62,095 bases of DNA from Chloroflexota bacterium (lineage in GTDB: Bacteria; Chloroflexota; UBA6077; SHYK01): positions 1 through 62,095 of the forward strand of contig WHTR01000003.1 of the NCBI GenBank assembly GCA_009377635.1. The letters run 5' to 3'. This document shows, piece by piece, positions 7,553-46,189 of this stretch. The notes below the pieces were generated by a model, which searched no databases, was not told where the DNA came from, and saw nothing but the letters and a program-made list of their open reading frames with translations. The translations under genes were made by a program, and so were the position numbers. Position 1 is the stretch's first letter, and each line of letters begins with the position of its first letter.

Positions 7553-7860
7553 GCCCGGCAGTGAGTTTGACGCGCTCGTCTGCTTCATGAACTTGGTTGA
7601 CTTCGCCGAGTGGTTGCCCCAACTCCGCCAGCAATTGCTCGAGGCGCGCAACGGTGCAGCGATGGCGTTCCACCTCGCGCGGCCATCCCCAGGCTGCCTG
7701 CAGGAACCAGATGGCGGCCGCTGCCTCCTTATTGAGAGGGATCACGCGCTCTTGTCTGGTCTTGCCGGCCGGGATATGCAAGCGCGGCGTTCCGTCGCGG
7801 TATGCATCAAGACAGTCAAATGCCAGGCGCCGGATCTCGCCAGCGCGCGCCGCTCCCCAG
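7536..7860 (-). pseudogene. Tyrosine recombinase (integrase) internal fragment
   Basis: GAARAGEIRRL (RxxE), LHIPAGKTRQERVIPL; HxxR and Tyr regions absent. Confidence 0.65.
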
Positions 7861-8373
7861 GTCAACTGGCACGTGCCGATCGACGATACGAGCCACTGGC
7901 GGTACATGATCCTGTTCCGACGGAACACCCCCTTTGACGAGAGTGCCCGGCGGCGTTTCCGTAACGGGGTGAACGCCGATTACCGGCAAACCCGCAACCG
8001 GGGTAACCGGTACTTGCAGGATCGGGCGGAGATGAAGCTCGGCACGTACACTGGTATGGGCACCGAATTTTTGACCCACGATACCGCCGCGACCGAGGGT
8101 GAAGGCCTGATTCAGGACCGGACGCAGGAGCACCTCGGGTACACAGATCGCGCAATCGTCGCCATCCGGCAGATGCTGCTCAGGGCAGTCCGCGATATCC
8201 AGGAGGGACACGACCCGCCCCACGTCGTCCGTGATCAAGCCGCGAACCACTTCGCAGACGTCGAGGTGACGCAGGGGCTCGTGCCCCGCGCCGAGAATTG
8301 GCGCGGCTTCTGGAAGCGTGATTTCGCCTCCGTCGGCCGCGCAGGGACCGTTGCCGCCCGCCCGACGACGTAG
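7861..8373 (+). pseudogene. C-terminal fragment of a LigXa/phthalate-dioxygenase-type Rieske oxygenase
   Basis: WHVPIDDTSHW, RYLQDRAEMK, HDTAATEGEGLIQDRTQEHLGYTDRAIVAIRQMLLRAVRD; no Rieske domain. Confidence 0.8.
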
Positions 8374-17248: not shown

Positions 17249-17281
17249 GGTTAGCCCCCCTTTGAATGCCAATCCTTCGGA

Positions 17282-30211: not shown

Positions 30212-31660
30212 CTACTGCATGTCCCATTCCATCACATTCCAGAATGCTCCGCCGCGGCCCTTTGCGGTTGGCTTGATGCCGGCCACTCCTGGGCGGAAGA
30301 GCGTGCTCGTGACCGCGTAGTACAGCGGTAGTTCTGGAAGCTCTTCGGTCAGCAGTTGGACCAGGCCGCGGTAGAGAGCGCGCTGCTCGTTCGGGTCGAT
30401 GGCGACCGAGAGTCTCTCGATGATCGCGTCGTTCTCCGCGCTCCGGTAGCATGCACGGTTCTGTCCTTTCCAGCCCTTTTCCGCCGACGGGCACTCCTTG
30501 CTGTGGAGTGCCTGGACGGAAAATCGGAAACTGTCGGGGAACCTCACCATGCTGAACGATGGGTAGGACACACGAAACTGATCGTCCCGATTTTGCGCAG
30601 GCGACATGACCAGAGGGTCGACGCCGAGACCGATGGACTTCCAACTGTCGGCGATCACGTTCATCTCCTGCTCTCGGTCCGCACCAGAGGCCCACAAGCC
30701 GACGGATACTTTCTCCCCCGCCGAATTCACGAGCGAGCCGTCGCCACCGCTCCGCCACCCGGATTCTTCGAGGACTTGCTCCGCACGCCGCAGGTCATGC
30801 GGGTAGAGCCGCGCTACATCCTCCACCCAGTCCCACTTGACGTCCTCACGCGGGACGAAGGTATCCGCGACAGGCGCCACACCCGCGTACAGGACCTCCA
30901 CCAGGGCCTGACGGTCAATGGCATGAAGGAGCCCCTGCCGGATGCGGGCGTCGACGATCTCCGGCGGGTTCGGGACACGGAACTGAACCCCGAGGCGGCT
31001 GTAGTGTGTCTGTTGGACGAGAAAGACGGGCTTCTTGCCCTCACTCTCCCACGTGTTCTTGACCAGAATCGCCCCGTTGAAATCCACTGCTCTGGCCGCT
31101 CCGTCCACGGCGCCGGAAAGCATGTTGGCCACTGCGGTCGAGGAGTCCCCGATGAACCGGAACGTCAGCATGTCGATCTTCGGCCGTCCGCCGTAAAAGC
31201 CATCGTAGACCTTCAATACCAGGTGGCTTCCCAGTGCCCACTCGTCCAGAATGTACGGTCCGACGCCGACGAACTCCGTCGTCCAGTACGGCAGCTTCTC
31301 GAACCGTCCCTTTTCGGTCCGATAGACGTCCTCGAGAAGATGCGCGGGGAAGGGCCCGAGGTCGTCCTCGATTATGGCGTGGGCAAACGGGTAAGTGGCC
31401 TTCCACTCGATCACCAGGGTCGAGCTGTCCGGCGTGTCGATCCGCTCGATCTGACTGGCCACGGATCGCTGGGAGATCGGGAGCTCTGGATCCAGCGTTG
31501 CCGTCAACGCGAAAGTGAAGTCCGTGGCCTGAAGCGGTGCGCCGTCGTGCCACGTGACGTTGGGGCGAAGCGTGTAGGTCGTTTGCATCGTGCCGTCTGG
31601 CCGGACGATCCAGGTACCTCGCTGCTGCGAAGGAAGCTCGACGGCAAGTTGGGGATGGAT
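30212..31660 (-). pseudogene. Family-5 ABC substrate-binding protein lacking signal peptide and N-terminus
   Basis: Begins IHPQLAVELPS...PDGTMQTTYTL; 5' end joined directly to the upstream VOC gene. Confidence 0.8.
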
Positions 31661-32117
31661 GCTGGACCGGTCCCTCGAAGTCAATATCGTATTGCTTCAG
31701 CAGTTCGATCGCCCGTTCCAACTGCTGATCCGTCACGGGAAATGCGTGTCGAGGCGAGCCGCGAAGCTGCTCTGGCGGGGGCTCCTGCTCGTGGCGCCGA
31801 GCGAGGAACAACGGCATCAGCGCGCCCCCGATCTGCACACTGCCCTGGCCCACGCCAACCAGCCGGACATTCCGGTTCGCCGACGGGTTCTCCGTCTCGA
31901 TCCCCCGTGCCTCGTCCGCGGCTGCGGCGCGGGCGCCCGTTCCTCCCGTCCGTGCGGTGTGCACGTACTCCTCGGTCGAATTCATCGACCGATGCTCGAC
32001 CCGCACGAGATCGTCGCCATAGGTGCCGCCGAATACCTGCTTGTAGAACCGCTCGGCGCGAATGAAGTCGTTGACGCGGATCACCGCATGGTCGAACTCG
32101 ATCATCGCGTTGTGCAC
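31656..32117 (-). pseudogene. Single-domain VOC protein truncated before the YFxDPxGNxxE strand
   Basis: EFDHAVIRVND, EQEPPPEQLRGSPRHAF, DFEGPVQHP, then runs into SBP DNA in another frame. Confidence 0.75.
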
Positions 32118-32159: not shown

Positions 32160-32957
32160 TCACTCATGGCGAGCATCGGGTGCGGTGGCGCCGGCCTCCC
32201 CTCGCACCGGCGCCATGCGCTTCGCCTCACTCGGGAGGCGCCGAATGCTGACGTCTGTATCAACCACGACCTGCCCGTCGACGAACTCGATCGCATGCAC
32301 GTGAAGTGGCGGCGTGCCGGGGGTGTGGCCGAGGTGCACCCCCGTGCGCGTGAACTTGTTGTGGTGCCGGGGGCAGTAGAACCGAAAGTGCTCCGGCTGA
32401 TAGCACACCGACGACTGACGGTGCGTGCAGACCTCGGAGATGGCGAGGATTCCATCCTGCGTGCGTACGATGAAAAACCTCCCCACATCGTTGTGGGTCA
32501 CCGACCCCAACGGAAAGTCCTCAAGACGGCCGGCTACGATCTTCCCCCGCCTGGCCGGAGGCGTCTCGTACGCCTCCGGCGCGATGGCAGTGATCTGCAT
32601 CATCTGGTCATCGGGGTCATAGTAGTTGTCGCTCATCTCTCCGACGGCACGGAACTCCTCGCGAAGGTCGCCGATCGCACACCCCTCCACCTTGAGCCGC
32701 GCCTGCACCTCAACGAAGTCCTCAGGAGAGAGCATGAAGTTCCAATGCTCGGCGCGCGAGGCGTCAACAAAGAGCACCTCAACGAGCACGACATACTGCC
32801 CGATCTGAGTCTTGAAGGTCGAGGTCCGCCCCTCCTCGCCGGGCCACAGATCACGCCCGACCGCTTCGAGGCCGAGCACCTCGCCGAAGAAGCGCTCGCT
32901 TCGTTCGAGGTTACTGATCTGGACAACCTTGTGGTTGAAGTGTAGTCGGCTAACCAC
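32160..32957 (-). CDS. VOC-Rieske [2Fe-2S] fusion protein (D3)
   Basis: FNHKVVQI...EHWNF...YDPDDQMMQIT; Rieske CTHRQS...YCPRH. Confidence 0.85.
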   Translation of the reverse strand: MVSRLHFNHKVVQISNLERSERFFGEVLGLEAVGRDLWPGEEGRTSTFKTQIGQYVVLVEVLFVDASRAEHWNFMLSPEDFVEVQARLKVEGCAIGDLREEFRAVGEMSDNYYDPDDQMMQITAIAPEAYETPPARRGKIVAGRLEDFPLGSVTHNDVGRFFIVRTQDGILAISEVCTHRQSSVCYQPEHFRFYCPRHHNKFTRTGVHLGHTPGTPPLHVHAIEFVDGQVVVDTDVSIRRLPSEAKRMAPVRGEAGATAPDARHE

Positions 32958-33759
32958 GAGTCGCTCCTCTTACTGCTGGCACTGCCGCCGCAAGAGACGC
33001 ATCTATCCCATCGGCCTCCTCTTCGGTGCGCGGGAGGCTCATATCCGTGTCGACGAGCACCTGGCCGTCCACAATCTCGATCGCGTACTTCTGGAGCGGC
33101 GGGACGTCGACGCGCACGGCCAACTGCCGGCCGGTCCGATTGAACCTTCGATTGTGGCAGAAGCAGTAATACTGGTAGTGCTCCGGTTCGTACACGACAT
33201 TGCACTGTAGGTGGGTGCAGACTTGATTGAGCGCCAGGAGCCCATCCGCTGTGCGGACGAGGTAGAAGCGACCATTGGCATTGAAGGTGACCGAGCCGAC
33301 CTCGAAGTCCTCGATCCGGCCGGCGACGAGCTTGCCACGCTTCGATGCCGGAACCTCGTAGGCGTCACGCCAGGCGGTGAGCTGGAGCCGATGGCGGTCT
33401 GGATCGAAGAGGGAGCAGGTCACCTCGCCGACGGATCGGACGCCCATCTCCGTCCGGTAGTTCGGGCGGAGCCACCCCCGCTGCTTGATCCGCTCATAGA
33501 CACGCTGGTAGTCCCCTAGCGGGAGCATGAAGTTCCGATGCTGCGCAGGTCCGTCGGGCTTCACCTCCGGCACGCGCACGAGCACGACATACGCCCCGTC
33601 GGCGGTCTGAAACGTCATGTTCGGGGTCGGGTCATCCGGCCAGAGGTCTCGCCCAACGGGCGCAAGACCTAGGTCGTCGCGGTAGAAGCGATCGGACCGC
33701 TCGATGTCCGATACCTCCAGCATCAGCTTGAACCAGTGGCGTTTGCTCAGATCCGACAT
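32950..33759 (-). CDS. VOC-Rieske [2Fe-2S] fusion protein (D2)
   Basis: WFKLMLEV...QHRNF...FDPDRHRLQLT; Rieske CTHLQC...YCFCH. Confidence 0.85.
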   Translation of the reverse strand: MSDLSKRHWFKLMLEVSDIERSDRFYRDDLGLAPVGRDLWPDDPTPNMTFQTADGAYVVLVRVPEVKPDGPAQHRNFMLPLGDYQRVYERIKQRGWLRPNYRTEMGVRSVGEVTCSLFDPDRHRLQLTAWRDAYEVPASKRGKLVAGRIEDFEVGSVTFNANGRFYLVRTADGLLALNQVCTHLQCNVVYEPEHYQYYCFCHNRRFNRTGRQLAVRVDVPPLQKYAIEIVDGQVLVDTDMSLPRTEEEADGIDASLAAAVPAVRGATRG

Positions 33760-33777
33760 GTCAACCTCCGTGATCAT

Positions 33778-34269
33778 CTACTTCCTCGGGACGCTGAGCT
33801 CGAGGAAGTTGCTCGACGGATCCTTGAAGTAGAGCGAACGCGCCACCGGCGAGGGCGGCGAGTGCTCGACCGGCCCCTCGAACGGGATGCCGTGGTGGCG
33901 CAAGACGTCCACCGCGCGCTCCATCAGCTCGGGACTGACGTGCAGCGCAACGCGCGGGGTGCCGCGCAGCAGCTCGGGGGGCGGCTCCTGTACGTGCTCG
34001 GTGTGGAGAAACATCGGGATCAGGGCGCGGCCCACCTTGACGCCGCTGTGCGGCGCCGGCACACGAAAGCCGCGCTCCGTCTCGCCCGCGCGCTCCGCCA
34101 TGCGTTCACGGAGTCGGCCCGCGCGCAGTACCTCCTCGGTCGTGTGCAGCGTCGGGGGTTCCACCTCGCAGCCGAGCAGCTCGCCCACCACGTCATGGTA
34201 GAACCGCTCCGCGAGAATGAGATCGTTGACCGCGATGACGCTGTGGTCGAACTCCTCGATGATAGTCAT
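33778..34269 (-). CDS. Single-domain VOC family protein
   Basis: EFDHSVIAV, QEPPPELLRGTPR, FEGPVEH, YFKDPSSNFLEL; ATGA overlap with the upstream gene. Confidence 0.85.
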   Translation of the reverse strand: MTIIEEFDHSVIAVNDLILAERFYHDVVGELLGCEVEPPTLHTTEEVLRAGRLRERMAERAGETERGFRVPAPHSGVKVGRALIPMFLHTEHVQEPPPELLRGTPRVALHVSPELMERAVDVLRHHGIPFEGPVEHSPPSPVARSLYFKDPSSNFLELSVPRK

Positions 34270-35045
34270 CCCGACACTCCTTCAACGCCGACGGCATGGA
34301 CCATGCGATCGGCTTCTTCCAGGGTACGTGGCATCGTCGTATCCGTGTCGACGACGACCTGTCCATCCACCAGTTCGATCGCGTAGGCGTGCAGCGGCGG
34401 CGTACCAGCGGTATGGCCGAGATGCTCGCCCTTGCGCGTGAAGCGGTTGTAGTGGCAAGCGCAATAAAAGCGGTAGTGCTCGGGCTGGTAAGCGACGATG
34501 CAGTGCTGATGCGTGCAAACGTCGTTGAGAGCAAGAATGCCCTCCCGGAGATGAACCAGAAAGAACCCGCCCGCCTGGCTGTGGGTCACCGAGCCAACCG
34601 GGAAGTCCTCGATGCGGCCGGCGACCACTTTGCCCTGACCGGATGCGGGTACATGGAACGCATCCTCGTCGTACGCGGTGATCTGGAGGCGGTGGCCGTC
34701 TGGGTCGTTGAAATAGGTACTGACCTCTCCGACGGAGCGCTGCTCATCGCGATGGTCGACGACCAGGCAGCCGAGCCGCTTGAGTCGCTCGTAGACATTC
34801 TGGTATTCCTCCGGCGGCACAATGAAGTTGGTGTGTACGCCGGGCCCATCGCGCTGTACCCGGTCAACCTGGAGCAGGACAACGTACTGCCGCTCGGCCG
34901 TTCTGAAGGTCGCGTTCGGCCCGTCCTCCGGCCAGATATCGTGCCCCACTGGCTCCAGCCCAATCCCCTCCGCGTAGAAGCGATCGGAGCGGGCCAGATC
35001 AGAGACCTCCAGCACGATGTGATGAAAATGGCCAACCTGTGGCAT
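34266..35045 (-). CDS. VOC-Rieske [2Fe-2S] fusion protein (D1)
   Basis: FHHIVLEV...VHTNF...FNDPDGHRLQIT; Rieske CTHQHC...YCACH. Confidence 0.85.
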   Translation of the reverse strand: MPQVGHFHHIVLEVSDLARSDRFYAEGIGLEPVGHDIWPEDGPNATFRTAERQYVVLLQVDRVQRDGPGVHTNFIVPPEEYQNVYERLKRLGCLVVDHRDEQRSVGEVSTYFNDPDGHRLQITAYDEDAFHVPASGQGKVVAGRIEDFPVGSVTHSQAGGFFLVHLREGILALNDVCTHQHCIVAYQPEHYRFYCACHYNRFTRKGEHLGHTAGTPPLHAYAIELVDGQVVVDTDTTMPRTLEEADRMVHAVGVEGVSG

Positions 35046-35121
35046 GTCAGACCTCCCCCGACTACGGCGCACTCTGCCGCGCGCGGCGTAGCGGGAGCCG
35101 ACGCAGCACGCTGCTTGCGCT

Positions 35122-35150
35122 ATCGTATGACCGTGCATGTGCGCCGTCAA
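35122..35150 (-). promoter_or_regulatory. sigma70-type promoter for array D
   Basis: TTGACG-N17-TACGAT on the minus strand. Confidence 0.5.
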
Positions 35151-35234
35151 GCTCGGGCGGCGATGGTCTTTCGCGACGGAACGAGCGAGTTTTGTGCGCG
35201 ACCCGGCGAGCGATTCTCTGGAGGTTATTGCGCA

Positions 35235-36185
35235 GTGAAGCCAATCATTCTTGGGCTCCCGGATGGCAAGCTCCACGCTGCTCCTACCCTGGTGGCACTC
35301 GGTCTAAACTGCTTCAAGCATCATGGGCTCGAGGTCGAGGCCATGAATGCGGGCGCCCACACCCGCAGCATCCCTGCGATTGCCAACAACGAGGTCGACG
35401 TCAGCCCGCAGGGGCCACTGCTCGGGTTCTGCCAGGCGTGGGATCCCGCGCACCCCATGGTCATGGTCGCGGACCAGGGCTCGGTGAAGCCGGGTCGCGG
35501 CGAAGGCGCCATCGTGGCACGCACCGCGCTCCTCGAGAGCGGCCAGCTTCGAGACTACCCTGATCTGAAAGGCAAGCGGATCGGACTGAGCGCCATTCGC
35601 GGCGACCATGATTGGCTCACGTTCAATGCCGCGCTTCGAAAGGGCGGCTTAAGCCTGGACGACGTCGAGATCGTCATCTGCGACTTCGGTGAGCAGCGCC
35701 ACCGTGCGCTGGCCGAAGGACGGATCGATGCCGCCACCGTTAGCCGCCTCGGCAGCCAGATGCGTGGACGCGAAGACCGCGCGTTCGGCATCTGGAAGCG
35801 CGAGCACGAGTTCCGCGAGCGGCAGGAGCGCGCCATCACCTTCAGCCACCGGTTCTGGACCGAGCGCCCTGACGATGGTTACCGTTTCGTCCGCGCCTAC
35901 ATCGAGGGCCTGCGCGACTACTACAGCGCCTTCGAGCGGGGCCTCAATCGGGATGAGATCGTCCGAGTGCTGGCCGCCCAGGCCGGTGAGCCAGAGGAGG
36001 CGATCGCAACGGAGATGGTGCCGATGGCGGTGGACCCAAACGGGCGCATCAACGACAAGGCGATCGCGTCGGACATCACCTGGTTCCAGGAGCAAGGCCT
36101 GCTCGACCATCCGATTCCAATCGACCAGCTCATCGACTACCGTTACCTCGACGCGGCGCTACAGGATCTCGGCATCGCCGAATAG
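35235..36185 (+). CDS. NMT1/THI5/SsuA-fold (PBP2) protein without signal peptide
   Basis: CFKHHGLEVE, AIANNEVDV, DLKGKRIG, LAEGRIDAA; GTG start after GGAGGT; no hydrophobic leader. Confidence 0.8.
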   Translation: MKPIILGLPDGKLHAAPTLVALGLNCFKHHGLEVEAMNAGAHTRSIPAIANNEVDVSPQGPLLGFCQAWDPAHPMVMVADQGSVKPGRGEGAIVARTALLESGQLRDYPDLKGKRIGLSAIRGDHDWLTFNAALRKGGLSLDDVEIVICDFGEQRHRALAEGRIDAATVSRLGSQMRGREDRAFGIWKREHEFRERQERAITFSHRFWTERPDDGYRFVRAYIEGLRDYYSAFERGLNRDEIVRVLAAQAGEPEEAIATEMVPMAVDPNGRINDKAIASDITWFQEQGLLDHPIPIDQLIDYRYLDAALQDLGIAE

Positions 36186-36197
36186 GGGGCAACCAAC

Positions 36198-37142
36198 TCA
36201 GCCGCAGCGCAGCTCTGAGAAGTTGCCGTCCGCGTCGCGGAAGTAGATGCTGCGTCCGTGCCGCTCGTGTGGAACTGGCTCGGCGTCGGCGCGGGCGGCC
36301 GCCTGATCCGCAGCCATGGATGAGCGGAATAGAATGCGCGGTGTGCCGACGATTTGCTCCTCAGGCGGTTCCTGGCGTGTCTTCGTCGCGCTGATCATGC
36401 CGAGACGAGTGTCTCCGTAGCGAAGAAAGACCTGCGTGTTCGGGCGAGGCACGCGGATCGATCGGTTCTTGCTGCCTTGGTCCCGAAAGTCCGTCCAGCC
36501 GGGGTTGTCGCGCCGGGTCCACGGCGCAGCAGGGTCGTCGCCGTCCAGCCACGCCTTCGCGGCTGTCTGGTCCTCGACCCTCCAGCCATGATAGTAGTCG
36601 ACCTCTCCGCCCAGCTCGCGGACGTACAGGTACTCGCAATAGTCGAACGCATGTACCTCGATGGCGACGTGCGCGATAAGCGGGTCGGCGGAGGAAGCAG
36701 CCACCAGCTGGACCCGGTTACCGCTCGGGTCATGCAGATACGGCGCCAGCTCGCGCTCCTGTGGATGGTCCTCGTGCCACCATTCAACTGAATGGCCCGC
36801 CTCGGCGAGCTGTTCCGCGAGCGAGGAGACGCGCGTTGCCCGAACCCGGTAGGCGGTGTGCTGGCCGCCGTCGGCGAACGTTCGGGGCTTTGCTTTCTGA
36901 ACCAGCTCCAGGCTCTGCGAGCCGGATTCGAACGTGAGCGTCCGAGCGCTCGGCTTCCAGCTACCGGCCGCGTCCCAGAAGATGGGCTCGTAGAACGCGC
37001 GCGCCTCCGCGAGATCGCGCACCTCCAACTGCACCCCCGCCACGCTGTCGATGGAGATGTGCCCGTCAACCGGCTTGAGGACGGCGGCGAAACCGGCCGC
37101 CTGCCTCGCGGACTCTGCCGCTGCCGACGTCTCTGTTGCCAT
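36198..37142 (-). CDS. Tandem (two-domain) VOC protein, triad A
   Basis: GQHTAYRV...HDPSGNRVQLV; IAHVAIEV...YFRDADGNFSELRCG. Confidence 0.8.
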   Translation of the reverse strand: MATETSAAAESARQAAGFAAVLKPVDGHISIDSVAGVQLEVRDLAEARAFYEPIFWDAAGSWKPSARTLTFESGSQSLELVQKAKPRTFADGGQHTAYRVRATRVSSLAEQLAEAGHSVEWWHEDHPQERELAPYLHDPSGNRVQLVAASSADPLIAHVAIEVHAFDYCEYLYVRELGGEVDYYHGWRVEDQTAAKAWLDGDDPAAPWTRRDNPGWTDFRDQGSKNRSIRVPRPNTQVFLRYGDTRLGMISATKTRQEPPEEQIVGTPRILFRSSMAADQAAARADAEPVPHERHGRSIYFRDADGNFSELRCG

Positions 37143-37170
37143 GCTGCCTCCTATTCCTCCATGCTGCCTC

Positions 37171-37629
37171 CTATTCCTCGGCTACGCGGACCGGGTTGTA
37201 CTGGACGTCTTCGTCGCGCCTCCAGCACACCTCGAAGTAGTTGCCGCCCGGATCGCGGAAATAGATCGACTCGCCGAGCGGCCCCCGCTCGGGATGGACG
37301 AGTGGCCCCTCAAACGGCACGCCCTGTTCCTGAAGTCGTTGCGTGATCTCGTCGAACCGCGTGCGGGAGACGGCGAACCCGTGGCGGAAGCTATCCTCCC
37401 CTCCTCGAAGCTGCTCGAGGGGAGCCACGTCCCGCCTGCGAGGAAAGGTCACGAAGACGTAGTCGCCCAGGATACCGCACGAATGGGCATTGCCGCCGCG
37501 GGTGCCCTCATAGGAGCGCGACACCGTCTCCTCGCGCACGCCGCTGAGGACCGTCTCGTAGAAGGTGTGGACAGCACGGGAGTCCGGGGCGACCATCCCG
37601 CTGTGGCTGATGCTCTCGATGTCCGCCAT
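37171..37629 (-). CDS. Single-domain VOC protein, triad A
   Basis: ISHSGMV, NAHSCG, FRHGFAV, YFRDPGGNYFEVCWRRD. Confidence 0.85.
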   Translation of the reverse strand: MADIESISHSGMVAPDSRAVHTFYETVLSGVREETVSRSYEGTRGGNAHSCGILGDYVFVTFPRRRDVAPLEQLRGGEDSFRHGFAVSRTRFDEITQRLQEQGVPFEGPLVHPERGPLGESIYFRDPGGNYFEVCWRRDEDVQYNPVRVAEE

Positions 37630-37648
37630 TGTTCTCTCCTTCTGCTGG

Positions 37649-38521
37649 CTATGGCCTCGCGCCCACCGCTTCGCGGGTCGGGTTGGAGACCTGGCTCGGG
37701 TCGTAGCCCTCGCGGGTGATCGTCTCGTCCGTATCTACCAAGATGCGCCCGTCGTCGGTGAAGGTGATCGGATGCAGACGGAGCGGGCCGCAGGCGGAAT
37801 TGCCCGGATACGGCGCGGGGACGCCTCGACGGTCGTACGTCGCTCCATGGAATGGGCAGTGGAAGTGCCAGTGAGCCTTCTGATAGATGACGATGCCATT
37901 GAAATGCGTGCACCACTTGCTCACGGCCAGAAAGCCCTCGTGCAAGCGGACCAGGTGGAAGTTCCCCGACTTGAAGGGACGAACGTCGCCGACCTTGAAC
38001 TGGGAGATGGCGCCGCAGTCGACCACACCTGCGCCGGGCATGATCTGTTTCCCCTCGGGGCCGTAGCACTGGATCTGGAACCGGTGGCCGTCGGGGTCCA
38101 CGACGTCGATGCTGTACTGGCCGTGCGCGCGGTACATCTCGCGGTCGTCTTCGACCGGGTAGCCGAGCTCGTGGAGGCGCTCGTATAACAGGCGGTACTG
38201 GTTTGGCGTCACCATGAATCCGTGGTGCACGCCGGATCGGCCCGGGCTCCACACCTGGTCTGTCAGTACCAAGATGATGAGCTGGCCGGTGTTCATTTGA
38301 ACGACCGAGTGCGGCGCCCGCTCGCCGACGAGGTCCCGACCCAGGAGATCGAGCCCGAGCACGTCACGATAGAAGGCCTCGCTGCGGACGAGGTCGGTGA
38401 CTCCGAGCACCAGATGGCTGAATCGCTCGATGGTCTTTGCCGACTCCCGAACGGTGAGGGTGCCGTGGCCGCCGTAGACGGTGGGCTGGTCCGATGTGTC
38501 GGGCAGGGACTGGAGGTGCAT
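37649..38521 (-). CDS. VOC-Rieske [2Fe-2S] fusion protein, triad A
   Basis: MHLQ...GGHG; FSHLVLGV...VHHGF...DPDGHRFQIQ; Rieske CTHFNG...HCPFH. Confidence 0.85.
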   Translation of the reverse strand: MHLQSLPDTSDQPTVYGGHGTLTVRESAKTIERFSHLVLGVTDLVRSEAFYRDVLGLDLLGRDLVGERAPHSVVQMNTGQLIILVLTDQVWSPGRSGVHHGFMVTPNQYRLLYERLHELGYPVEDDREMYRAHGQYSIDVVDPDGHRFQIQCYGPEGKQIMPGAGVVDCGAISQFKVGDVRPFKSGNFHLVRLHEGFLAVSKWCTHFNGIVIYQKAHWHFHCPFHGATYDRRGVPAPYPGNSACGPLRLHPITFTDDGRILVDTDETITREGYDPSQVSNPTREAVGARP

Positions 38522-38571
38522 CGCTACTCCTTGGCCGGCGCGAATGGCTCGCAGGGATTCATTTCGCTGCA

Positions 38572-38600
38572 ATGCTATCGAGAGGGAAAGGCTACGTCAA
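38572..38600 (-). promoter_or_regulatory. sigma70-type promoter for triad A
   Basis: TTGACG-N17-TAGCAT on the minus strand. Confidence 0.5.
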
Positions 38601-38967
38601 TTACGCAATCTCCCCAAAAGGCCGGTCCGCGGGCTTGTCGGATGTGCGTTTGGCACCGCCAGGAGATGCCAGGATGCACGTCTCTATCACGCGCGCTGGA
38701 ACTTGACATCGTTTCCGAGGCGGCCCGCCGACGATGGCTGCGTCGACGCGCCGGATGACGTCAAGTGGATGGAGTGGCTGGAGGTCCGGGAGGCACTCGA
38801 ACATCCGAGCCCACGACAATCTCTCGTCGCTGAGCGGAAGGCCCAGGCTGAGCGGCCCGCCGGGAGCACCCCTCCGACGATTGGGCCGCCTCTGCCGGCG
38901 GATGCCCCAAGAATGCATCTGATCCGAGAAATCCTGGCCCTCCTCGGCTAGCGGCCCGGACGGAAAC

Positions 38968-39067
38968 TGTCATCCTGAGCCCTTCGCTTCGCTCGAGGGT
39001 AAACTCCGCGAAGGATCCGTGCCTCGTCCGGGTGCGGATTCTTCGGGCTGAAGCCATCAGAATGACA
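38968..39067. repeat. Intergenic palindromic element, copy 2
   Basis: Left arm equals the reverse complement of the right arm of copy 1 (51/52 nt); 40-nt core identical to copy 3. Confidence 0.8.
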
Positions 39068-39078
39068 TTGACCGAAAA

Positions 39079-39960
39079 TTAGCCCGCACACGCAATTTGA
39101 AAGAAGTTCCCGCTGCGGTCACGGAGAAAGATATCCCGGCCTTCGCGGCGGAAGCGAATCCTGCCTCCATCGTATCTGAGCGACACCGGAGAGATGCGGA
39201 CACTCGCCAGGTACGACGCCACCTCGTGGGGGGCATGCGACGATCGGAACACGAGGCGTGGGGTGTACTTGAGGAATTCCTCCGGCGGCTCCGGCAGCCT
39301 CTGGCCGGTCAGCGTAACCCCGACGTAGCCTTCGCCGAACCGGGTGAAGACTTGGGCCGCCGGCGTCGGGTTCGGCTCATGGGTTCGGAAGGAGACGTAG
39401 GCGTTCCTGGTCCATGGCGCTGCCGAATCCTTCCCTTCGGACCAGCGGTGCGCCTGGGAGACGTCTGCCGTGCTGTAGCCAAAATAGGTATCGAGCTGGC
39501 CACGGAGCGCGTTGAGATAGAACAGCTCCGCGTGCTCGATGTCCTCGACCGGGACGTAGTAGTGATCGATCAAGGTCCCGGCATGATCGGACGGAACGAG
39601 CTCGACGATATTGCCGCTCGGATCCTTCGCGTACGGAGTGGTGTCTCGCTCGCTGGGGTGATCCTCGTGCCAGCGGTTCACCTCGAACCCGGAGGCAGCC
39701 AGGCTATCAGCAACGCGACCAATCTCTGCACGAGGGATGCGGTATCCAACGTGCTGACCAGCGTGTGCAAGGGTTCGGGGACGCGGGTGACGCACGAACT
39801 CGACTGACTGGTCGCCGCCGACGAAGGTCACTCGACGTCCATGCTCACGCCACTGCCCGCGATCCGAGCCAAAGAGCAAGCTGTAGAACTCGCGCGTAGC
39901 TCTCAGATCCGCAGCGTCGAGCACGACGCTAGCAAACCCTTCGAGTTGGAGTGGCCCCAC
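39079..39960 (-). CDS. Tandem VOC protein, triad B
   Basis: GQHVGYRI...KDPSGNIVELV; IDHYYVPV...LRDRSGNFFQIACAG. Confidence 0.8.
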   Translation of the reverse strand: MGPLQLEGFASVVLDAADLRATREFYSLLFGSDRGQWREHGRRVTFVGGDQSVEFVRHPRPRTLAHAGQHVGYRIPRAEIGRVADSLAASGFEVNRWHEDHPSERDTTPYAKDPSGNIVELVPSDHAGTLIDHYYVPVEDIEHAELFYLNALRGQLDTYFGYSTADVSQAHRWSEGKDSAAPWTRNAYVSFRTHEPNPTPAAQVFTRFGEGYVGVTLTGQRLPEPPEEFLKYTPRLVFRSSHAPHEVASYLASVRISPVSLRYDGGRIRFRREGRDIFLRDRSGNFFQIACAG

Positions 39961-39972
39961 CTCCGATGTGTC

Positions 39973-40437
39973 CTACTTCTTGCTGACGAGCGGGTTGTAC
40001 GCGACCTCTTCGTCGCGACGCCAGCAGACTTCCATGAAGTTCCCGCCGGGATCCGTGAAATAGAGGGACTCGCCAAACGGACCGTGCTCGGGATGCTGCA
40101 CCGGCCCTTCGAATGGAAGTTCCAGGTCTCGCGCCCGCGCGACGACGTCGTCAAAGCGCTGGCGGCTCACCGAAAATCCAATGCGGGATCCGTCTTCGCC
40201 TCGTGGCGATTCAGGCAACGGAATGTCGTCCTGATGCGGGAACAGAACGAACAGGTAGCCAGCGACGGTGTTGCACGGATGCGGGGCGCCGCGACCCGCG
40301 CGAACGTCCTCGGTTGCTGAGCTGATGGTGTTACAGTGATGTGCTCCCAGCACATCCACATAGAACTGTTCGCCGGTTCGAACGTCGGGGACGCTGCGAC
40401 CAGTGTGGTTCAAGCCCTCGATGTTTGCCATCGTCAT
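39973..40437 (-). CDS. Single-domain VOC protein, triad B
   Basis: LNHTGRSV, APHPCN, YFTDPGGNFMEVCWRRD. Confidence 0.85.
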   Translation of the reverse strand: MTMANIEGLNHTGRSVPDVRTGEQFYVDVLGAHHCNTISSATEDVRAGRGAPHPCNTVAGYLFVLFPHQDDIPLPESPRGEDGSRIGFSVSRQRFDDVVARARDLELPFEGPVQHPEHGPFGESLYFTDPGGNFMEVCWRRDEEVAYNPLVSKK

Positions 40438-40465
40438 TCGCTCCTCGTGTAGCGTTCCGCCCAGT

Positions 40466-41386
40466 CTATGCCGTGACCGCGACCTTGGGTGGCTTCGAAG
40501 CCTGCTGCGGCTCGAAGCAGGCTCGGTGTATGACCTGGCTGGTATCCACCAGCGCGTGCCCTTCGGGGCTGAAGTTCACCGGGTAGAGGCGCAACGCGTC
40601 GATGTCCGGCTGCCCGCCCGTGGCGTTACCGCAGCGGTCGAAGGTTGCGTGGTGGTACGGACACTGGAAGCGCCAGTGCTCCCTATTCCAGATGATGCGG
40701 CCGTTCATGTGCGTGCACCACCGGCTCATAGCCAGGAACCCTTCCTTCACGCGCACGAGGAACACATCCGCTTCCTTGAAGAGCTTGACATCTCCGACTT
40801 TGAAGCTATCGGCCGGCCCGCAGTCGATCGTTCCGACATTGGGGAGAATCACTTCGGACGCCTCAGGCGCATCGCAGCAGACCTCGAGCGCGTGGTCATC
40901 CGGGTCCCGGAAGTTGACGTTGAACTCACCTTCCGCGAGGTACTGCGCTCGATCCACCCAGACGTCGATCTCGTGCTCCTTGACCTTCTCGAGCAGGCGC
41001 CGATACTGGTTGGGAGTCATGGTGAATGCGTGATGCACGGCGTTCGTGCCCAGCCGCCGGGGAACGACGTTCTTATCCTCAACCAGAACAAGCATACAAC
41101 CCGTGTTCATGCGGAGCACAGCGTGCGGCCGCTGCTCGGCCATGAGGCCGCGGCCGACGATATCCATGCCCATGACGTCATTGTAGAAGTGCTCGCTTCT
41201 GTCGAGACTGCCTACGCCCAACACCAGGTGGCTGATTCGATCGACGAACCCCTCCTCCTGGCGCGAGCCCGGGACGTATCCGTGCCCGCCATACTGGGGC
41301 AAGGCGTCCGACGCCTGCGGGAGCTCCTTTGCCTTTTCGAGCTGTCGTGTGGTCCGGTATCCATTGGCAGGTGCAGCGGTTTCCAT
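40466..41386 (-). CDS. VOC-Rieske [2Fe-2S] fusion protein, triad B
   Basis: YGGHG; ISHLVLGV...VHHAF...RDPDDHALEVC; Rieske CTHMNG...QCPYH. Confidence 0.85.
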   Translation of the reverse strand: METAAPANGYRTTRQLEKAKELPQASDALPQYGGHGYVPGSRQEEGFVDRISHLVLGVGSLDRSEHFYNDVMGMDIVGRGLMAEQRPHAVLRMNTGCMLVLVEDKNVVPRRLGTNAVHHAFTMTPNQYRRLLEKVKEHEIDVWVDRAQYLAEGEFNVNFRDPDDHALEVCCDAPEASEVILPNVGTIDCGPADSFKVGDVKLFKEADVFLVRVKEGFLAMSRWCTHMNGRIIWNREHWRFQCPYHHATFDRCGNATGGQPDIDALRLYPVNFSPEGHALVDTSQVIHRACFEPQQASKPPKVAVTA

Positions 41387-41425
41387 ACGTTTCTCCCTCT
41401 CGCAGATCAGACCATATACCTCATA

Positions 41426-42313
41426 TTATCCCAGGATATCCCATTCCGTCTTCACGAGAAACGACTGTTGGAAATCCATCGCCGCTGGTATGGCGCCATC
41501 GAGCGCACCGGCTATCAAGTTGGCGACAACTGTGGGCGCGTTCTCCACGAAGCGGAAAGTGATGGTGTCGATCTTGGCCCGCCCGGCATAAAAGCGATCG
41601 TAGGCCTTGACCGTCATGTGGCTGCCGAGAACCCACTCATCCATTTGATACGGCCCGACGCCGACGAATCCGGTCGTCCAAAAGGGAAGCTGCTGGAATC
41701 GCTCCTTGTCGGTCCGATAGACCTCCTCAATCAGATGGCCCGGGAGCGGTCCAAGGTCGTCCTCGACGATTCCGTTGGCGAACGGATAGGTTTTCGACCA
41801 TTGCACGACCAGCGTGTGATCATCTGGCGCGTCCAAACCGTCGATGTAGATGGCAACTTTGCCCTGGGAGACGGGGAGCTCCGGGTCTGTGGTGACGGTG
41901 TGCGCGAAGATAAAGTCCTTGGCGGTCAGCGGAGTCCCGTCGTGCCAGGTCACATCGTTCCGCAGTCGATAGGTCGTCTGCATGGTCCCGTCAGGGCGAA
42001 CCACCCAGTCCCCGTTATCCTGCGAAGGGAGGGCTGCGAGCTGCGCATGCAGCTCGCCTCGGTCATCGAGGGTCGCCAGCTTCTGGTGCATCGCTCCCTG
42101 CACATCGCCACCCAGGTTCGGCTGGTTTCCGAGACCGAGCGAGGTGATCAGCACCTGCGGCTCGCCCTGGAGGGCCACGCCGAGTGCTTTCGGGTCCGTC
42201 GAGGGGGCAGCGGGGCTCGTGGACTGACCGCCCGCGGGAGCCGATCCGAGCGGCGCGCAGCTGGTGGCCATGAGGGCAACGGCAATCATCGCCAGGTAAT
42301 GGCGTTTTATCAT
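41426..42313 (-). pseudogene. Family-5 ABC substrate-binding lipoprotein truncated at about half length
   Basis: Lipobox ATSC; PDGTMQTTYRLRNDVTWHDG; stops at VKTEWDILG* where paralogs continue for roughly 270 more residues. Confidence 0.8.
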
Positions 42314-42401
42314 CACCGGCCTGCACCTCGGACCATGACCTTCCGGTTCAGAATCCTACCCTCCACGCCCTCATTGGCATTCGAGCAGAATGCCCGTCCA
42401 C

Positions 42402-43481
42402 CTAACACATGCAGGGCCGTGCCACGGCAAACGAGGCCGGGGTTCCCTTGAGCGGCTTGATCGTATACGCCGAGATCGTGTCCCCAATATCGTAGGGATT
42501 CTGCGGAGCGTTGCGATTCCGTTTCGTAAACCCACGCCCAGCGCCATGGTCAACGCCCTGCGGCGTGAAGAGGATTGAACCCGTCATCGGTCCTGACGAT
42601 AGATAGCGCATCTCGTCGACATCGGCGTCTCGGTGCACCGGAGCCGACGTGCCACCGCCGGAGAGGTGGAGCGTCCATGCAAGATTCTTGGCATTATCCA
42701 GGTAGGCCCCTCCCAGGAACGGAACCGGCGTGCTGCCCAGCTTCTCGATATCCATTACTTTGAACTTGAAGATGCCGATCTCGCCGTCGATGATCTCGGT
42801 GTCGAGTGGATAGCGGTCGTACGTGATGGTCGAGACGTCGCCCAGAAACTCGGAGAACGCGCCGCTGTACTTGACCCGCACCTCGCACCCGCCCTCCGGC
42901 AGCGCACCGTCCGGAAGACGCGGTCGCTCGACCCGGGACGGATCGACCGCTGGTCGACCCTTGCCATACACATGGTCGACCATCTCTACGGGTACGAGAA
43001 ACACTTCGGGACGGGACTCGTAGATCATCCGCAGGGTATCCGGGGCGCCACGTACGGACGCTCGATGGGTTACCCCCTTCGGGATGACCAGGAACTCCCG
43101 CTCATTCACGTCGATGGATCCGAAGTCGGTCTCGTAGGTGAACTGGCCTCGACTGATGAGATGGACCTCATCGGCATCGCAGTTTCGAAAGAAGAACGGC
43201 ATGCTCTCGCGGCGCCGTGAGATCCAGACCGATACGTCGTCGCTGTAGAGAACCTTCGTGGCTTCGCCGAACGGAGACTCCATGTCGGTGGTGGACGGCG
43301 TGCCAGCCGGAATCTCCCAGTTCTGATAGTTTCCTTGAACGCTCTTCCACTCCATGGGGTGCGTCTTGCGATAGAGGACGGCGTCCGTCCCCCAGAGTGC
43401 CCGCCGGTTGTAGTGGTGACGTACCAGGTCGACCTGGCTCATATCCTTCTGAGTGACTCGCCCAGCGGTTGTCTCCGCCAT
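42402..43481 (-). CDS. Divergent homogentisate 1,2-dioxygenase-like double cupin
   Basis: FFRNCDADEVH...ETDFG...VIPKGVTHR; C-terminal PVHRDADVDE...FTPQGVDHG (His/Glu/His iron triad pattern). Confidence 0.7.
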   Translation of the reverse strand: MAETTAGRVTQKDMSQVDLVRHHYNRRALWGTDAVLYRKTHPMEWKSVQGNYQNWEIPAGTPSTTDMESPFGEATKVLYSDDVSVWISRRRESMPFFFRNCDADEVHLISRGQFTYETDFGSIDVNEREFLVIPKGVTHRASVRGAPDTLRMIYESRPEVFLVPVEMVDHVYGKGRPAVDPSRVERPRLPDGALPEGGCEVRVKYSGAFSEFLGDVSTITYDRYPLDTEIIDGEIGIFKFKVMDIEKLGSTPVPFLGGAYLDNAKNLAWTLHLSGGGTSAPVHRDADVDEMRYLSSGPMTGSILFTPQGVDHGAGRGFTKRNRNAPQNPYDIGDTISAYTIKPLKGTPASFAVARPCMC

Positions 43482-43890
43482 CGCCGTTCTCCTCGGGTTT
43501 TCGCGCCATTACGAGCGTGCGCAGCGGACATTCAGGTGCTACCGGCAATCGAACCGCTCGTACCGGACAGGTGCCCGGGCGCGAGCCCGCCAGCCGCGAA
43601 AGCCGGTAGCCCGAGCGCCATCGTATCCGGAGTGGAGGGCAAGGTCAACCTCAACTCGTCAAATCGCCGAATGATCTTGACGAATGCGGCAGGCACTTGC
43701 AGAATGGGTGCGGCACGGGACAGCACCGTAGAATGAGGGTTCGTGCCTTCGGCCAACAACTCAAGGAGGATTGGCCGCGATAATCCGGATGTCGATGTGC
43801 CATTGTCTCAAGCGCTAGAATCTGGCCAGAAGCGGGCGGGAGCCCGCATCCGCGCCTATGTCTGCGCAGCGCGCGGGGAGAGGAGTTTCG

Positions 43891-44766
43891 ATGCATCTCC
43901 AAGACCTACCAAATGCGTCGGATGATGCAACATTTTTTGGAGGTCACGGCAGTCGGCCTGAGGACTGGGGAGCGCACATTCCAGCCGAACGGTTCAGCCA
44001 CCTCGCACTCGGCGTGACGAATCTGGACAGGAGCGAGGAGTGGTACCGCGACGTCATCGGGCTCGACGTCGTCGGCCGCAATCTGACCGCGGAACCATTG
44101 CCGCATAGCGTGCTGCAGATGAACACCGGGCAGCTCATGATCCTCGTTCAGGGTCGGGAGATTCACATTCCGGGACGCTCCGGCGTTCACCACGGGTTCA
44201 TGCTCACGCCGAACCAGTATCGCCGGGCGCACGACCGTCTCAAGGAATTGGGCTACGACATCGGCGACGAGCGGCAACAGTACCGGGCGCACGGCGAGTA
44301 CAGCATCGACATCGAGGACCCGGACGGGCACCGGTACCAGCTCCAGACGTACGGGCCGGAGGCGAACCTGCCGATGCCCGGCGCCGGCATCGTCGATTGC
44401 GGGACCCCGGACACCTACCGCGTCGGGGACGTCCGCGCCTTCAAGGACGGCAACTTCTTCCTGGTGCGGCACCACGAGGGCTTCCTTGCCCTATCGCGGT
44501 GGTGCCGCCACATGAATGGCACCGTCATCTACCAGAAGGCCCATTGGCACTTCGTCTGTCCGTTTCACGACGCCACGTACGACCGACGCGGCGTGGACGC
44601 GCCGTTCATGGGCAACCGTGCCCAGGGCCCGCTGCATCTCCACCCGATCACGTTCGGCCCGGAAGGGCACATCCGGGTCGACACGGACACGATCATCCCA
44701 CGTGATGGCTACGACGCGAGCCAGGCGGCCCAGCCGCCGGCGGCGGAACTCGCAGCCGCGAGGTAG
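43891..44766 (+). CDS. VOC-Rieske [2Fe-2S] fusion protein, triad C
   Basis: MHLQ...GGHG; FSHLALGV...VHHGF...DPDGHRYQLQ; Rieske CRHMNG...VCPFH. Confidence 0.85.
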   Translation: MHLQDLPNASDDATFFGGHGSRPEDWGAHIPAERFSHLALGVTNLDRSEEWYRDVIGLDVVGRNLTAEPLPHSVLQMNTGQLMILVQGREIHIPGRSGVHHGFMLTPNQYRRAHDRLKELGYDIGDERQQYRAHGEYSIDIEDPDGHRYQLQTYGPEANLPMPGAGIVDCGTPDTYRVGDVRAFKDGNFFLVRHHEGFLALSRWCRHMNGTVIYQKAHWHFVCPFHDATYDRRGVDAPFMGNRAQGPLHLHPITFGPEGHIRVDTDTIIPRDGYDASQAAQPPAAELAAAR

Positions 44767-44819
44767 CCGGGCGCTCTCAGGCAACGCGAGACTCGAAATG
44801 CGAAACGCGGAGGAACATA

Positions 44820-45278
44820 ATGGCAGAGGTTGAAAGCATCAGCCACAGCGGAATGGTTGCCCCAGACAGCCGCTCCGTGCATGACTGGTACGAGGACGTG
44901 ATGGGCGGCCATTGGGCCGAGACGGTCAGTCGCAACTACGAGGGGACTCGTGGAGCGAACGCGCACTCCTGCGGCATGATCGCGGACTACCTGTTTGTCA
45001 CCTTCCCGCGCGAGCGCGATATGCCCGGCCCCCAAATGCTGAAAGGCGGCGAGGAGAGCTACCGCCACGCGTGGGCGGTTTCCCGCGAGCGCTTCGAGGA
45101 GAGCCTGAAGTGGCTCGAGGAGCACGGCGTGGAGTTCGAGGGACCGGTGAACCATCCCGAGCATGGGCCCCTGGGCCAGTCGATCTACTTCCGTGATCCG
45201 GGCGGGAACTTCTTCGAGGTCTGCTGGAGGCGTGACGAGAGCCGCGAGTTCAACCCAGTCATCCTGGCGAGCGTCTGA
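44820..45278 (+). CDS. Single-domain VOC protein, triad C
   Basis: ISHSGMV, NAHSCG, YRHAWAV, YFRDPGGNFFEVCWRRD. Confidence 0.85.
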   Translation: MAEVESISHSGMVAPDSRSVHDWYEDVMGGHWAETVSRNYEGTRGANAHSCGMIADYLFVTFPRERDMPGPQMLKGGEESYRHAWAVSRERFEESLKWLEEHGVEFEGPVNHPEHGPLGQSIYFRDPGGNFFEVCWRRDESREFNPVILASV

Positions 45279-46189
45279 TGGCTGCCACGGCTCCCGCGCC
45301 GACCCGCTCCCAGCGCGTCGCCGCTCTGGCCGATCTCCTGGGAGGCGTGATCCTGGAGGTGCGCGACCTCGCCACGACCCGGTCCTTCTACGAGCCCATC
45401 TTCAGCGATGTTCCGGGCACGTGGCAGGAGCAGCGCGGCCGCCTGGTCTACCGGACCGAGCGACAGGCGATCGAGTTCGTCAAACGCGCGCGCCCACGAA
45501 GCTTCGCTGATAGTGGCCAGCACCAGGCGTATCGCGTTCGGCCAGATCGCATAGAGGGACTCACCGAGCGGCTTGCCAAGGATGGCCACGAGGTAAACTG
45601 GTGGCGCGAGGACAACCCGGCTGAGCACGAGGTCGCCCCCTATGTGCTCGACCCCGATGATCATCGGGTTCAGCTCGTCGGCTCGAGCAAGCTGGACCTG
45701 CTCCTCGACCACGCCGCGATGGAGATCCACGCGTTCGACTATTGCGAGCGCGTGTATCGAGGCGTCCTCGGCGGAACGGTTTCCTACTACCACGGCTGGC
45801 GCGTCGAGGACGAGGCGGATGCGAAGCGCTGGGGGCGTGGTGAGGACCCGGCGTTTCCCTGGTCCCGCCGCGACAACCCCGGATGGTTCGACTTCGCGCG
45901 CGCGGCCACCCGGGACCCCAACCTGAGAGTGCCGCGGCCCGCGACACAGGTGTTTCTCGCGTTCGGGTCCACCACCCTCGGTCTGATTAGCGCCTCGAAG
46001 ACCCGCCAGGAGCTGCCGGAGGAGATCATTCGTGGCCTGCCGCGGCTGGTCTTCCATAGCGCGCGTCCGGCCGAGGAGGCGTTCGCGCACATAGAGAAGG
46101 CCCTGCCGATCCCGTGGGAGCGGGAGGGCTCGACCGCCTATGTCCGCGACCCGGACGGCAACTTCGCCGAGCTCAGGTGTGCGGGGTAG
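45278..46189 (+). CDS. Tandem VOC protein, triad C
   Basis: GQHQAYRV...DPDDHRVQLV; LDHAAMEI...YVRDPDGNFAELRCAG; TGATG overlap with the upstream gene. Confidence 0.8.
   Translation: MAATAPAPTRSQRVAALADLLGGVILEVRDLATTRSFYEPIFSDVPGTWQEQRGRLVYRTERQAIEFVKRARPRSFADSGQHQAYRVRPDRIEGLTERLAKDGHEVNWWREDNPAEHEVAPYVLDPDDHRVQLVGSSKLDLLLDHAAMEIHAFDYCERVYRGVLGGTVSYYHGWRVEDEADAKRWGRGEDPAFPWSRRDNPGWFDFARAATRDPNLRVPRPATQVFLAFGSTTLGLISASKTRQELPEEIIRGLPRLVFHSARPAEEAFAHIEKALPIPWEREGSTAYVRDPDGNFAELRCAG

Follow-up and report, generated by a model that had tools for sequence, protein, structure and literature searches.

A conserved three-gene module of VOC-fold and VOC-Rieske proteins in a Chloroflexota bacterium: a probable one-site tandem protein and a putative two-chain equivalent

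Between 31.6 and 46.2 kb of a 62,095-nucleotide stretch of DNA from a Chloroflexota bacterium (GTDB lineage Bacteria; Chloroflexota; UBA6077; SHYK01), which we refer to as the window (GenBank assembly GCA_009377635.1, contig WHTR01000003.1, positions 1 to 62,095 of the forward strand), lie six genes that fuse a vicinal oxygen chelate (VOC) domain to a C-terminal Rieske domain (F), four intact genes and one truncated gene for single VOC proteins (S), and three genes for tandem VOC proteins (T). The residues at the positions that bind metal in VOC enzymes are distributed unevenly over these chains, and the locus thus raises the question of which domains combine to build a complete site. We suggest that F, S, and T constitute a module in which T is a one-site body and F and S together form its two-chain equivalent, with the same His/His/Gln pocket; we put the probability of this explanation as a whole at about 0.6.

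The window has a G+C content of ~64% and comes from a 3.5-Mb draft assembly of 343 contigs that is ~84% complete. Three triads were found in it, F4-S2-T1 (A), F5-S3-T2 (B), and F6-S4-T3 (C), and a fourth F-S-T triad is present in the same assembly on contig C302. An additional block, F3-S1-F2-F1 followed by the truncated S5, belongs to a related two-gene variant, subfamily 2, whose fusions F1 to F3 are 34 to 37% identical to F6. Genes within a triad overlap or are 12 to 53 bases apart. The genes are given below with the residues at the first, middle, and C-terminal ligand positions; +1 denotes the residue after the canonical middle position.

F6, 43858 to 44766, plus strand: triad C fusion; VOC residues His48, His111 (followed by His112), and Gln161
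F6 Rieske motifs, plus strand: C216-x-H218 and C234-x-x-H237 (Pfam Glyoxalase and Rieske matches)
S4, 44820 to 45278, plus strand: triad C single VOC, type 2; His9, Arg82 (canonical middle position), His83 (+1), and Glu133
T3, 45278 to 46189, plus strand: triad C tandem VOC; domain 1 Gly23, His82, and Gln132; domain 2 His145, Arg256, and Glu298
F5, 40466 to 41386, minus strand: triad B fusion; His/His/Glu, the sole fusion in the window with C-terminal Glu
S3, 39973 to 40437, minus strand: triad B single VOC; His, Arg-Ile, and Glu, lacking the +1 His
T2, 39079 to 39960, minus strand: triad B tandem VOC; Ser, His, and Glu in domain 1; His, Arg, and Gln in domain 2
F4, 37649 to 38572, minus strand: triad A fusion; His/His/Gln
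S2, 37171 to 37629, minus strand: triad A single VOC; His, Arg-His, and Glu
T1, 36198 to 37142, minus strand: triad A tandem VOC; Gly, His, and Gln in domain 1; His, Arg, and Glu in domain 2
F3, 34266 to 35051, minus strand: subfamily-2 fusion; His/His/Gln; extra Rieske Cys pair; open frame extends to 35276
S1, 33778 to 34269, minus strand: subfamily-2 single VOC; His, Arg-Val, and Glu; start overlaps the F3 stop by 4 bases
F2, 32950 to 33777, minus strand: subfamily-2 fusion; Lys/His/Gln, with Lys at the first-His position; extra Rieske Cys pair
F1, 32160 to 32957, minus strand: subfamily-2 fusion; His/His/Gln (Pfam and column counts)
S5, 31644 to 32105, minus strand: remnant of a fifth single VOC; ends after 'FEGPVQHPSPTC', the final strand with its Glu having gone

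The ligand columns were placed in register by HMMER alignment to FosB and FosA. The manganese ligands of FosA are His7, His64, and Glu110 (PMC11933065). His48, His111, and Gln161 of F6 align with His7, His66, and Glu115 of FosB; T3 has no Pfam match, and the T profile aligns Gly23, His82, and Gln132 with His7, His64, and Glu110 of FosA (E value, 2e-13). With PF00903, F1 to F6, S2 to S4, T1, and T2 score above 20.6 bits, past the gathering cutoff, and S1 scores 19.9 bits. The position equivalent to Glu110 is occupied by Gln in F1, F2, F3, F4, and F6, by Glu in F5, and by Glu in S1 to S4, so the columns agree with the initial annotation, made from the DNA sequence alone, which had noted Gln in five of six fusions and Glu in all four intact single VOCs. 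Its reading of the tandem proteins, in which domain 1 is without the first His and domain 2 without the middle His, also holds in T1 to T3: the first position of domain 1 is Gly, Ser, and Gly, respectively, the middle His is kept, and the C-terminal residue is Gln, Glu, and Gln, while in domain 2 the first His is kept and the middle position holds Arg, then an aliphatic residue, with no His. F2 has Lys at the first-His position, and S1 and S3 lack even the shifted +1 His.

The tandem proteins give the clearest answer to the question. An AlphaFold2 model of T3 built from 103 aligned sequences (predicted local distance difference test score [pLDDT], 95.3; predicted template modeling score [pTM], 0.90) contains four beta-alpha-beta-beta-beta modules as assigned by DSSP. 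Its top match in a Foldseek search of the PDB was the maize monomeric glyoxalase I (6bnn and 5d7z; template modeling score [TM], 0.57 to 0.61; root mean square deviation [rmsd], ~5 Å), followed by Bacillus cereus 1zsw, human GLOD4, Bacillus subtilis 3oaj, and PcpA 4huz (TM, 0.52 to 0.57); comparison with BphC, C23O, and HPCD gave a TM of ~0.30 and an rmsd of ~19 Å. The topology of the model supports a glyoxalase-like arrangement in which modules 2 and 3 form one pocket and modules 1 and 4 the other, and places His145, His82, and Gln132 of T3 in one predicted pocket. Under this swapped topology, the set comprising the first His of domain 2, the middle His of domain 1, and the C-terminal Gln or Glu of domain 1 is complete in 118 of the 118 T sequences that could be scored; the other swapped pocket is complete in none of them, and neither is a pocket made within one domain (0/118 in each case). 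Since the triad is complete only in the swapped arrangement, and there in every sequence, we are highly confident that T is a pseudodimer with one complete site, much as the initial annotation had proposed for the tandem proteins of the window.

Conservation across the family is consistent with this assignment. His82, Gln132, and His145 are each present in 133 to 135 of 135 T sequences, T2 being the sole member with Glu at the domain-1 C-terminal position. The second pocket, by comparison of model and columns, is supported as being degenerate, with Gly or His, Arg, and Glu at its three positions: the middle position of domain 2 is never His (Arg256 in 112 of 124), and the next residue is always aliphatic or Thr. 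The loss of the first His from domain 1 is true of the copies in the window but not of the whole family, in which 62 members have His at this position (Gly23 in T3; n = 134), 49 have Gly, and ~20 have another residue.

A VOC protein with one live and one cryptic pocket is already known. Plant monomeric glyoxalase I, the best fold match of T3, also carries four modules on one chain (Zea mays GLX1, 5d7z and 6bnn; rice OsGLYI-11.2), and its two lateral pockets comprise one that binds the functional metal and one that is cryptic (PMC5412262). The names of the maize GLX1 mutants, E144Q and V278E, are compatible with an active pocket to which the domain-1 C-terminal ligand contributes, as in T, if the mapping that we infer for them is right. 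The likeness has limits: T is ~15% identical to these enzymes, has a His/His/Gln set in place of His/Glu/His/Glu, carries Arg and Glu in its cryptic pocket, and, unlike glyoxalase I, always travels with F and S. The NCBIfam GloA model gave no match to T and 16 bits with F, against a cutoff of 165. PcpA- and MhqO-type hydroquinone dioxygenases (4huz and 3oaj; TM, 0.55 to 0.57) are also two-domain, pseudo-swapped VOCs like T. Residues of both halves build their one metal site, to which domain 1 contributes its first His and domain 2 its His and Glu; this is the opposite pocket to that of T, and it includes a carboxylate. In BphC, the catechol 2,3-dioxygenases, and HPCD, each pocket is made within one domain, and we rejected an identity of T as a type I two-domain extradiol dioxygenase on the basis of the TM of ~0.30 and the absence of any complete within-domain triad.

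The fusion protein F carries two of the three residues of such a site on a single VOC domain. Of the database relatives of F6, 119 of 119 have the first His and 120 of 120 the middle His; the C-terminal residue is Gln in 109 of 120 and Glu in 11, and a second count of F relatives gave Gln in 157 of 172. A clade to which F5 belongs has Glu at this position. All six copies in the window have the four Rieske ligands, as do 119 to 120 of 120 relatives, and the F copies score above the Pfam cutoff for the Rieske domain (PF00355), at more than 20.3 bits. The F6 model (AlphaFold2, 112 sequences; pLDDT, 90.1; pTM, 0.84) has a pair of beta-alpha-beta-beta-beta modules ahead of the Rieske domain, which is tethered ~15 residues past the Gln-bearing strand. 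Foldseek matched the VOC half to whole protomers of FosB, FosX, and FosA (target TM [TMt], 0.61 to 0.77; ~130 columns) and the Rieske half to 9rk4, the soluble domain of Kuenenia kuste4569 (TMt, 0.84; rmsd, 1.7 Å); no PDB entry spanned both halves (query TM, 0.35 or less). The sites of Fos enzymes are shared between the subunits of a dimer, and, because the VOC half of F resembles a Fos protomer, it probably requires a partner VOC domain.

FosA, FosB, and FosX are the closest solved sequence relatives of the F VOC domain and of T domain 1 and have their ligands at the same three positions; they differ in having Glu where F and T have Gln, in having neither a Rieske domain nor partner genes, and in being homodimers. 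Membership of F among the fosfomycin resistance enzymes was rejected in view of the Gln at the Glu position in five of the six window copies and 109 of 120 relatives and of scores far below the Fos cutoff: the best NCBIfam Fos model reached 28.9 bits against a cutoff of 171 (Fos cutoffs are 170 or more), and no curated NCBIfam model reached its cutoff for F, S, or T. F resembles the Rieske non-heme iron oxygenases in that one chain carries both a Rieske [2Fe-2S] domain and residues that belong to a mononuclear, His-rich site, but its catalytic domain has the VOC fold, with Gln instead of Asp or Glu; in the absence of the usual 2-His-1-carboxylate catalytic domain, we rejected a canonical enzyme of that class. 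The best match to the C-terminal domain of F is with the soluble Rieske proteins of Kuenenia stuttgartiensis (9rk4 and 9rk3; E value, 1.8e-9), which are stand-alone bc1/b6f-type domains. F2 and F3 have the extra Cys pair (C-T-H-x-x-C and C-x-C-H) characteristic of disulfide-bearing bc1/b6f-type clusters, whereas F1 and F4 to F6 do not.

Two features of the F chains were noted in passing. The Chloroflexota-type proteins have an N-terminal extension with the conserved motif 'LP..SD....(Y)GGHG' (residues 12 to 45 of F6, 43891 to 44020, plus strand; also in F4 and F5). The extension was modeled in F6 with a pLDDT of 72 to 85 and seems to be absent from many relatives in other phyla. The true start of F6 is likely Met12, at 43891, as the database copy P0001 begins MHLQDL.

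The single VOC proteins were found to have an altered middle position. Arg occupies the canonical middle position in 149 of 151 S proteins from the loci that we collected and in 120 of 122 from the database, and the conserved His (His83 of S4; 137 of 151) sits one residue beyond it. The first His and the Glu are retained in 118 of 118 and 120 of 120 database relatives, respectively, and His9 is kept in every S copy that is without the +1 His. The register was obtained in several ways. Alignment of the S and F families with hhalign paired 'R-H-G-F' of S with 'H-H-A-F' of F (probability, 98.4; E value, 7e-15), equating S Arg82 with F His111 and S His83 with the second His of F; alignment with T placed S on the second half of T (probability, 99.8; E value, 7.5e-29), equating His9, Arg82, and Glu133 with T His145, Arg256, and Glu298. 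Alignment of the S profile to PDB 3kol and 8he6 gave an identical register, which the spacing to the invariant Phe92 of S also supports. The same hhalign comparison paired S4 His49 (~44964 to 44966; His in 114 of 120 S) with T3 Gln224 (~45947 to 45949; Gln in 112, His in 14); the two residues lie in the module of the first His and hence would be located in the complete pocket, as possible second-shell or substrate-contact candidates.

These observations resolve into two ancient VOC domain types. In BLAST comparisons, the F VOC domain scored 51 to 59 bits with T domain 1 and 26 to 36 bits with the others, and S scored 52 to 53 bits with T domain 2 and ~33 bits with the others; a maximum-likelihood tree of 140 domains separated F VOC plus T domain 1 (type 1) from S plus T domain 2 (type 2) with an SH-like approximate likelihood ratio test support of 100. 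Type 1 domains read (His or Gly)/His/Gln and type 2 domains His/Arg/Glu. Natural gene fusions were also found: two of S with F, namely P0050 (locus L162), which T follows on its contig, and the subfamily-2 protein P0286; and three different sequences in which S is joined to T (L008/P0307, L009/P0285, and P0292). The S-F and S-T fusions arise in different lineages, and the S-then-F order could not have come about by read-through of the F-S gene order. T itself joins type 1 to type 2 in the order of the F and S genes, and this, together with the fusions, makes S the likely partner of F.

We therefore suggest, from these comparisons and from the Fos-like fold of the F protomer, that F and S form a heterodimer, a proposal that we consider somewhat better than even. 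In it, pocket 1 would consist of S His9, F His111, and F Gln161, the same His/His/Gln set as in T, and pocket 2 would consist of F His48, S Arg82, and S Glu133, corresponding to the degenerate pocket of those T proteins that keep His at position 23; the two bodies would thus match residue for residue. In terms of domain types, type 1 would supply the canonical middle His and the C-terminal Gln, and type 2 would supply the first His, with Arg at its own middle position and a retained C-terminal Glu; T would have both types fused and folded like monomeric glyoxalase I, with one full His/His/Gln pocket, and F and S would build the same body as a heterodimer with one canonical metal pocket. The pairing of fusion and single VOC put forward by the initial annotation is supported only indirectly, by the tree, the fusions, and the protomer fold. 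The complete His/His/Glu site that it placed in this heterodimer is not, as the Arg at the middle position of S makes the mixed pocket His/Arg/Glu; nor is the implied view of the Gln set as the weaker one, since Gln belongs to the His/His/Gln site that is complete everywhere.

Several points weigh against this proposal, and some of them favor its strongest competitor, in which F and S are separate Fos-like homodimers, T is a third enzyme, and the three act consecutively in a pathway without forming a complex. An F homodimer would have two His/His/Gln sites, each by a Rieske domain, and an S homodimer would have two His/Arg/Glu pockets, neither of them with a canonical metal. The ligand patterns of 138 F-S pairs satisfy the homodimer and heterodimer models equally often. 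F His48 is invariant in the main subfamily, yet it would fall in the degenerate pocket of the heterodimer, and 49 T sequences have Gly at the corresponding position; an F homodimer is the simpler account of this residue. In subfamily 2, which in other genomes occurs as F-S pairs without T, some S proteins have lost the first His while F keeps a full His/His/Glu triad, which fits a site built by F alone, and ligand decay in this subfamily is varied, with Tyr or Cys at the middle position of some F proteins. The S-T fusions could have arisen by plain loss of a stop codon between adjacent genes, and no reductase or other electron partner was conserved beside the module in the flanks of the loci inspected. 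The nearest solved relatives, FosA, FosB, and FosX, are homodimeric (PMC11933065). We nevertheless regard separate homodimers as unlikely: T displays the type 1-type 2 pairing and the tree places F with T domain 1 and S with T domain 2; the two S-then-F fusions have an order that read-through would not give; and F2, with Lys at the first-His position, would be left without a complete site as a homodimer.

A second alternative accepts the heterodimer but follows the initial annotation in placing its functional pocket at the first His of F together with His83 and Glu133 of S, a full His/His/Glu set, the Gln pocket being weaker or dead. It has in its favor that S His83 is ~90% conserved and S Glu133 is invariant. 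The Tyr65 residue of FosA, at the equivalent +1 position, is essential and lines the substrate and glutathione channel, so a +1 residue is not necessarily buried (PMC11933065). Against it, His83 is offset by one residue from the canonical ligand, whose position Arg82 occupies in 149 of 151 proteins; S1 and S3 lack it; and T has lost this pocket (no His; n = 124) yet keeps His/His/Gln in every sequence. We consider this version very unlikely. By analogy with FosA Tyr65, the +1 His residues, S4 His83 (~45066 to 45068) and F6 His112 (~44191 to 44193; kept in 153 of 168 F), may line a shared channel instead of binding metal.

That Gln is retained at the conserved site is itself informative. Gln and Glu codons are one base apart, and yet Gln is found in >90% of F and 99% of T proteins, which argues that Gln at this site is under selection. 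To our knowledge, there is no documented case of a VOC enzyme that binds metal through Gln at this position, and the pocket may bind no metal. Least probable of the explanations considered is one in which both VOC pockets are metal-free, with Gln and Arg marking ligand-binding or scaffold domains like those of bleomycin resistance proteins and the Rieske cluster as the sole redox center, for, although neither pocket has a canonical carboxylate triad and subfamily-2 copies lose further ligand residues, two His residues and the Gln are essentially invariant in two paralogues across at least seven phyla, the Gln persists in spite of lying one base from Glu, and the F5 clade has switched to Glu, giving a classical 2-His-1-carboxylate set. 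In triad B, both F5 and T2 carry that classical set, which fits related chemistry at the F and T sites, although a single case proves nothing. In raw counts, F has Glu in each of the six complete F-S pairs in which the S +1 residue is Ile, and Glu-type triads are enriched for Gln in T domain 2; with only two changes from Gln to Glu on the F tree, covariation of the F residue with the S +1 His and the T domain-2 Glu is powerless as a test, and it was discarded.

The module extends well beyond this bacterium. The order F-S-T was found in almost every one of 78 loci taken from species-representative genomes and of 79 taken from metagenomes, and, since the flanking genes vary between genomes, the triad itself is the conserved unit. 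At least seven phyla are represented, and among the named hosts are Chloroflexota, "Candidatus Binatia," Alphaproteobacteria, Gemmatimonas, Thermoleophilaceae, "Candidatus Lustribacter," and "Candidatus Acidiferrales." The relatives with a named source are mostly Chloroflexota metagenome-assembled genomes; the distribution within this phylum is patchy (7 of 201 sampled genomes).

The surroundings offer an indication of function. The window encodes two LigB-type ring cleavage dioxygenases, a LigXa-type Rieske oxygenase (15866 to 17272), a fragment comprising LigXa_C only (7597 to 8373), two amidohydrolase-2 enzymes, a molybdopterin hydroxylase large subunit, a GMC oxidoreductase, and several solute-binding proteins, and related loci contain NMT1-like and other binding proteins, cupins, and amidohydrolase-2 genes. 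The LigB, LigXa-type, amidohydrolase-2, and solute-binding genes together suggest a role for the module in the breakdown of imported aromatic or heteroaromatic compounds. The segment from 338 to 28809, in the upstream half, has the appearance of an aromatic catabolism island: it holds the LigB-type and LigXa-type genes, the LigXa_C fragment, the molybdopterin hydroxylase, GMC oxidoreductase, and two amidohydrolase-2 genes, and also carries two OCD/mu-crystallin genes and a further SBP_bac_5 gene. Between triads B and C, a gene at 42402 to 43481 (minus strand; 359 residues) has only weak matches, to the N-terminal part of homogentisate 1,2-dioxygenase (E value, 3e-4) and to a cupin model; it was not a conserved neighbor of the triad in the other loci inspected.

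Two places in the gene block bear possible signs of rearrangement. S5 abuts a 5'-truncated SBP_bac_5 gene (30212 to 31684, minus strand) from which the first ~95 residues have gone, and a second copy at 41426 to 42316 (minus strand) consists of just the first 296 residues; the two fragments share content, with near-identical motifs around 'VRPDGTMQTTY'. The state of these fragments and of S5 suggests that paralogous clusters once recombined or underwent a deletion between them or, alternatively, that contigs were joined in assembly.

The fusion of a Rieske domain to the chain that would contribute two of the three site residues suggests a role for the cluster in the delivery of electrons to, or the reductive repair of, a putative mononuclear metal. 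Both roles have a precedent: dedicated [2Fe-2S] ferredoxins, XylT among them, restore the activity of VOC-type catechol dioxygenases. In the delivery version, the Rieske cluster would pass electrons to the mononuclear metal site, the logic of the Rieske oxygenases being transferred to a VOC scaffold. More tentatively, and with the odds against it, we propose that F-S-T represents an unrecognized class of Rieske-coupled metalloenzymes in which a neutral His-His-Gln site in the F-S heterodimer is fed by the Rieske cluster and T is a Rieske-less fused paralogue with the same site, acting on aromatic-derived substrates in Chloroflexota, Alphaproteobacteria, Binatia, Gemmatimonadota, and other phyla.

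A full-text literature search returned no paper on a VOC-Rieske fusion. The conserved fusion and its three-gene module appear to be new, as do a metal-type triad ending in Gln that is fixed in two paralogues in at least seven phyla and a conserved Arg that fills the second pocket. If the heterodimer is real, it would represent a metal site of the VOC kind to which two different gene products contribute and which is coupled to an iron-sulfur cluster, and this would be a new redox scaffold. The module provides a clean three-gene target for expression and structure determination, and the ligand positions listed here name the residues to mutate.

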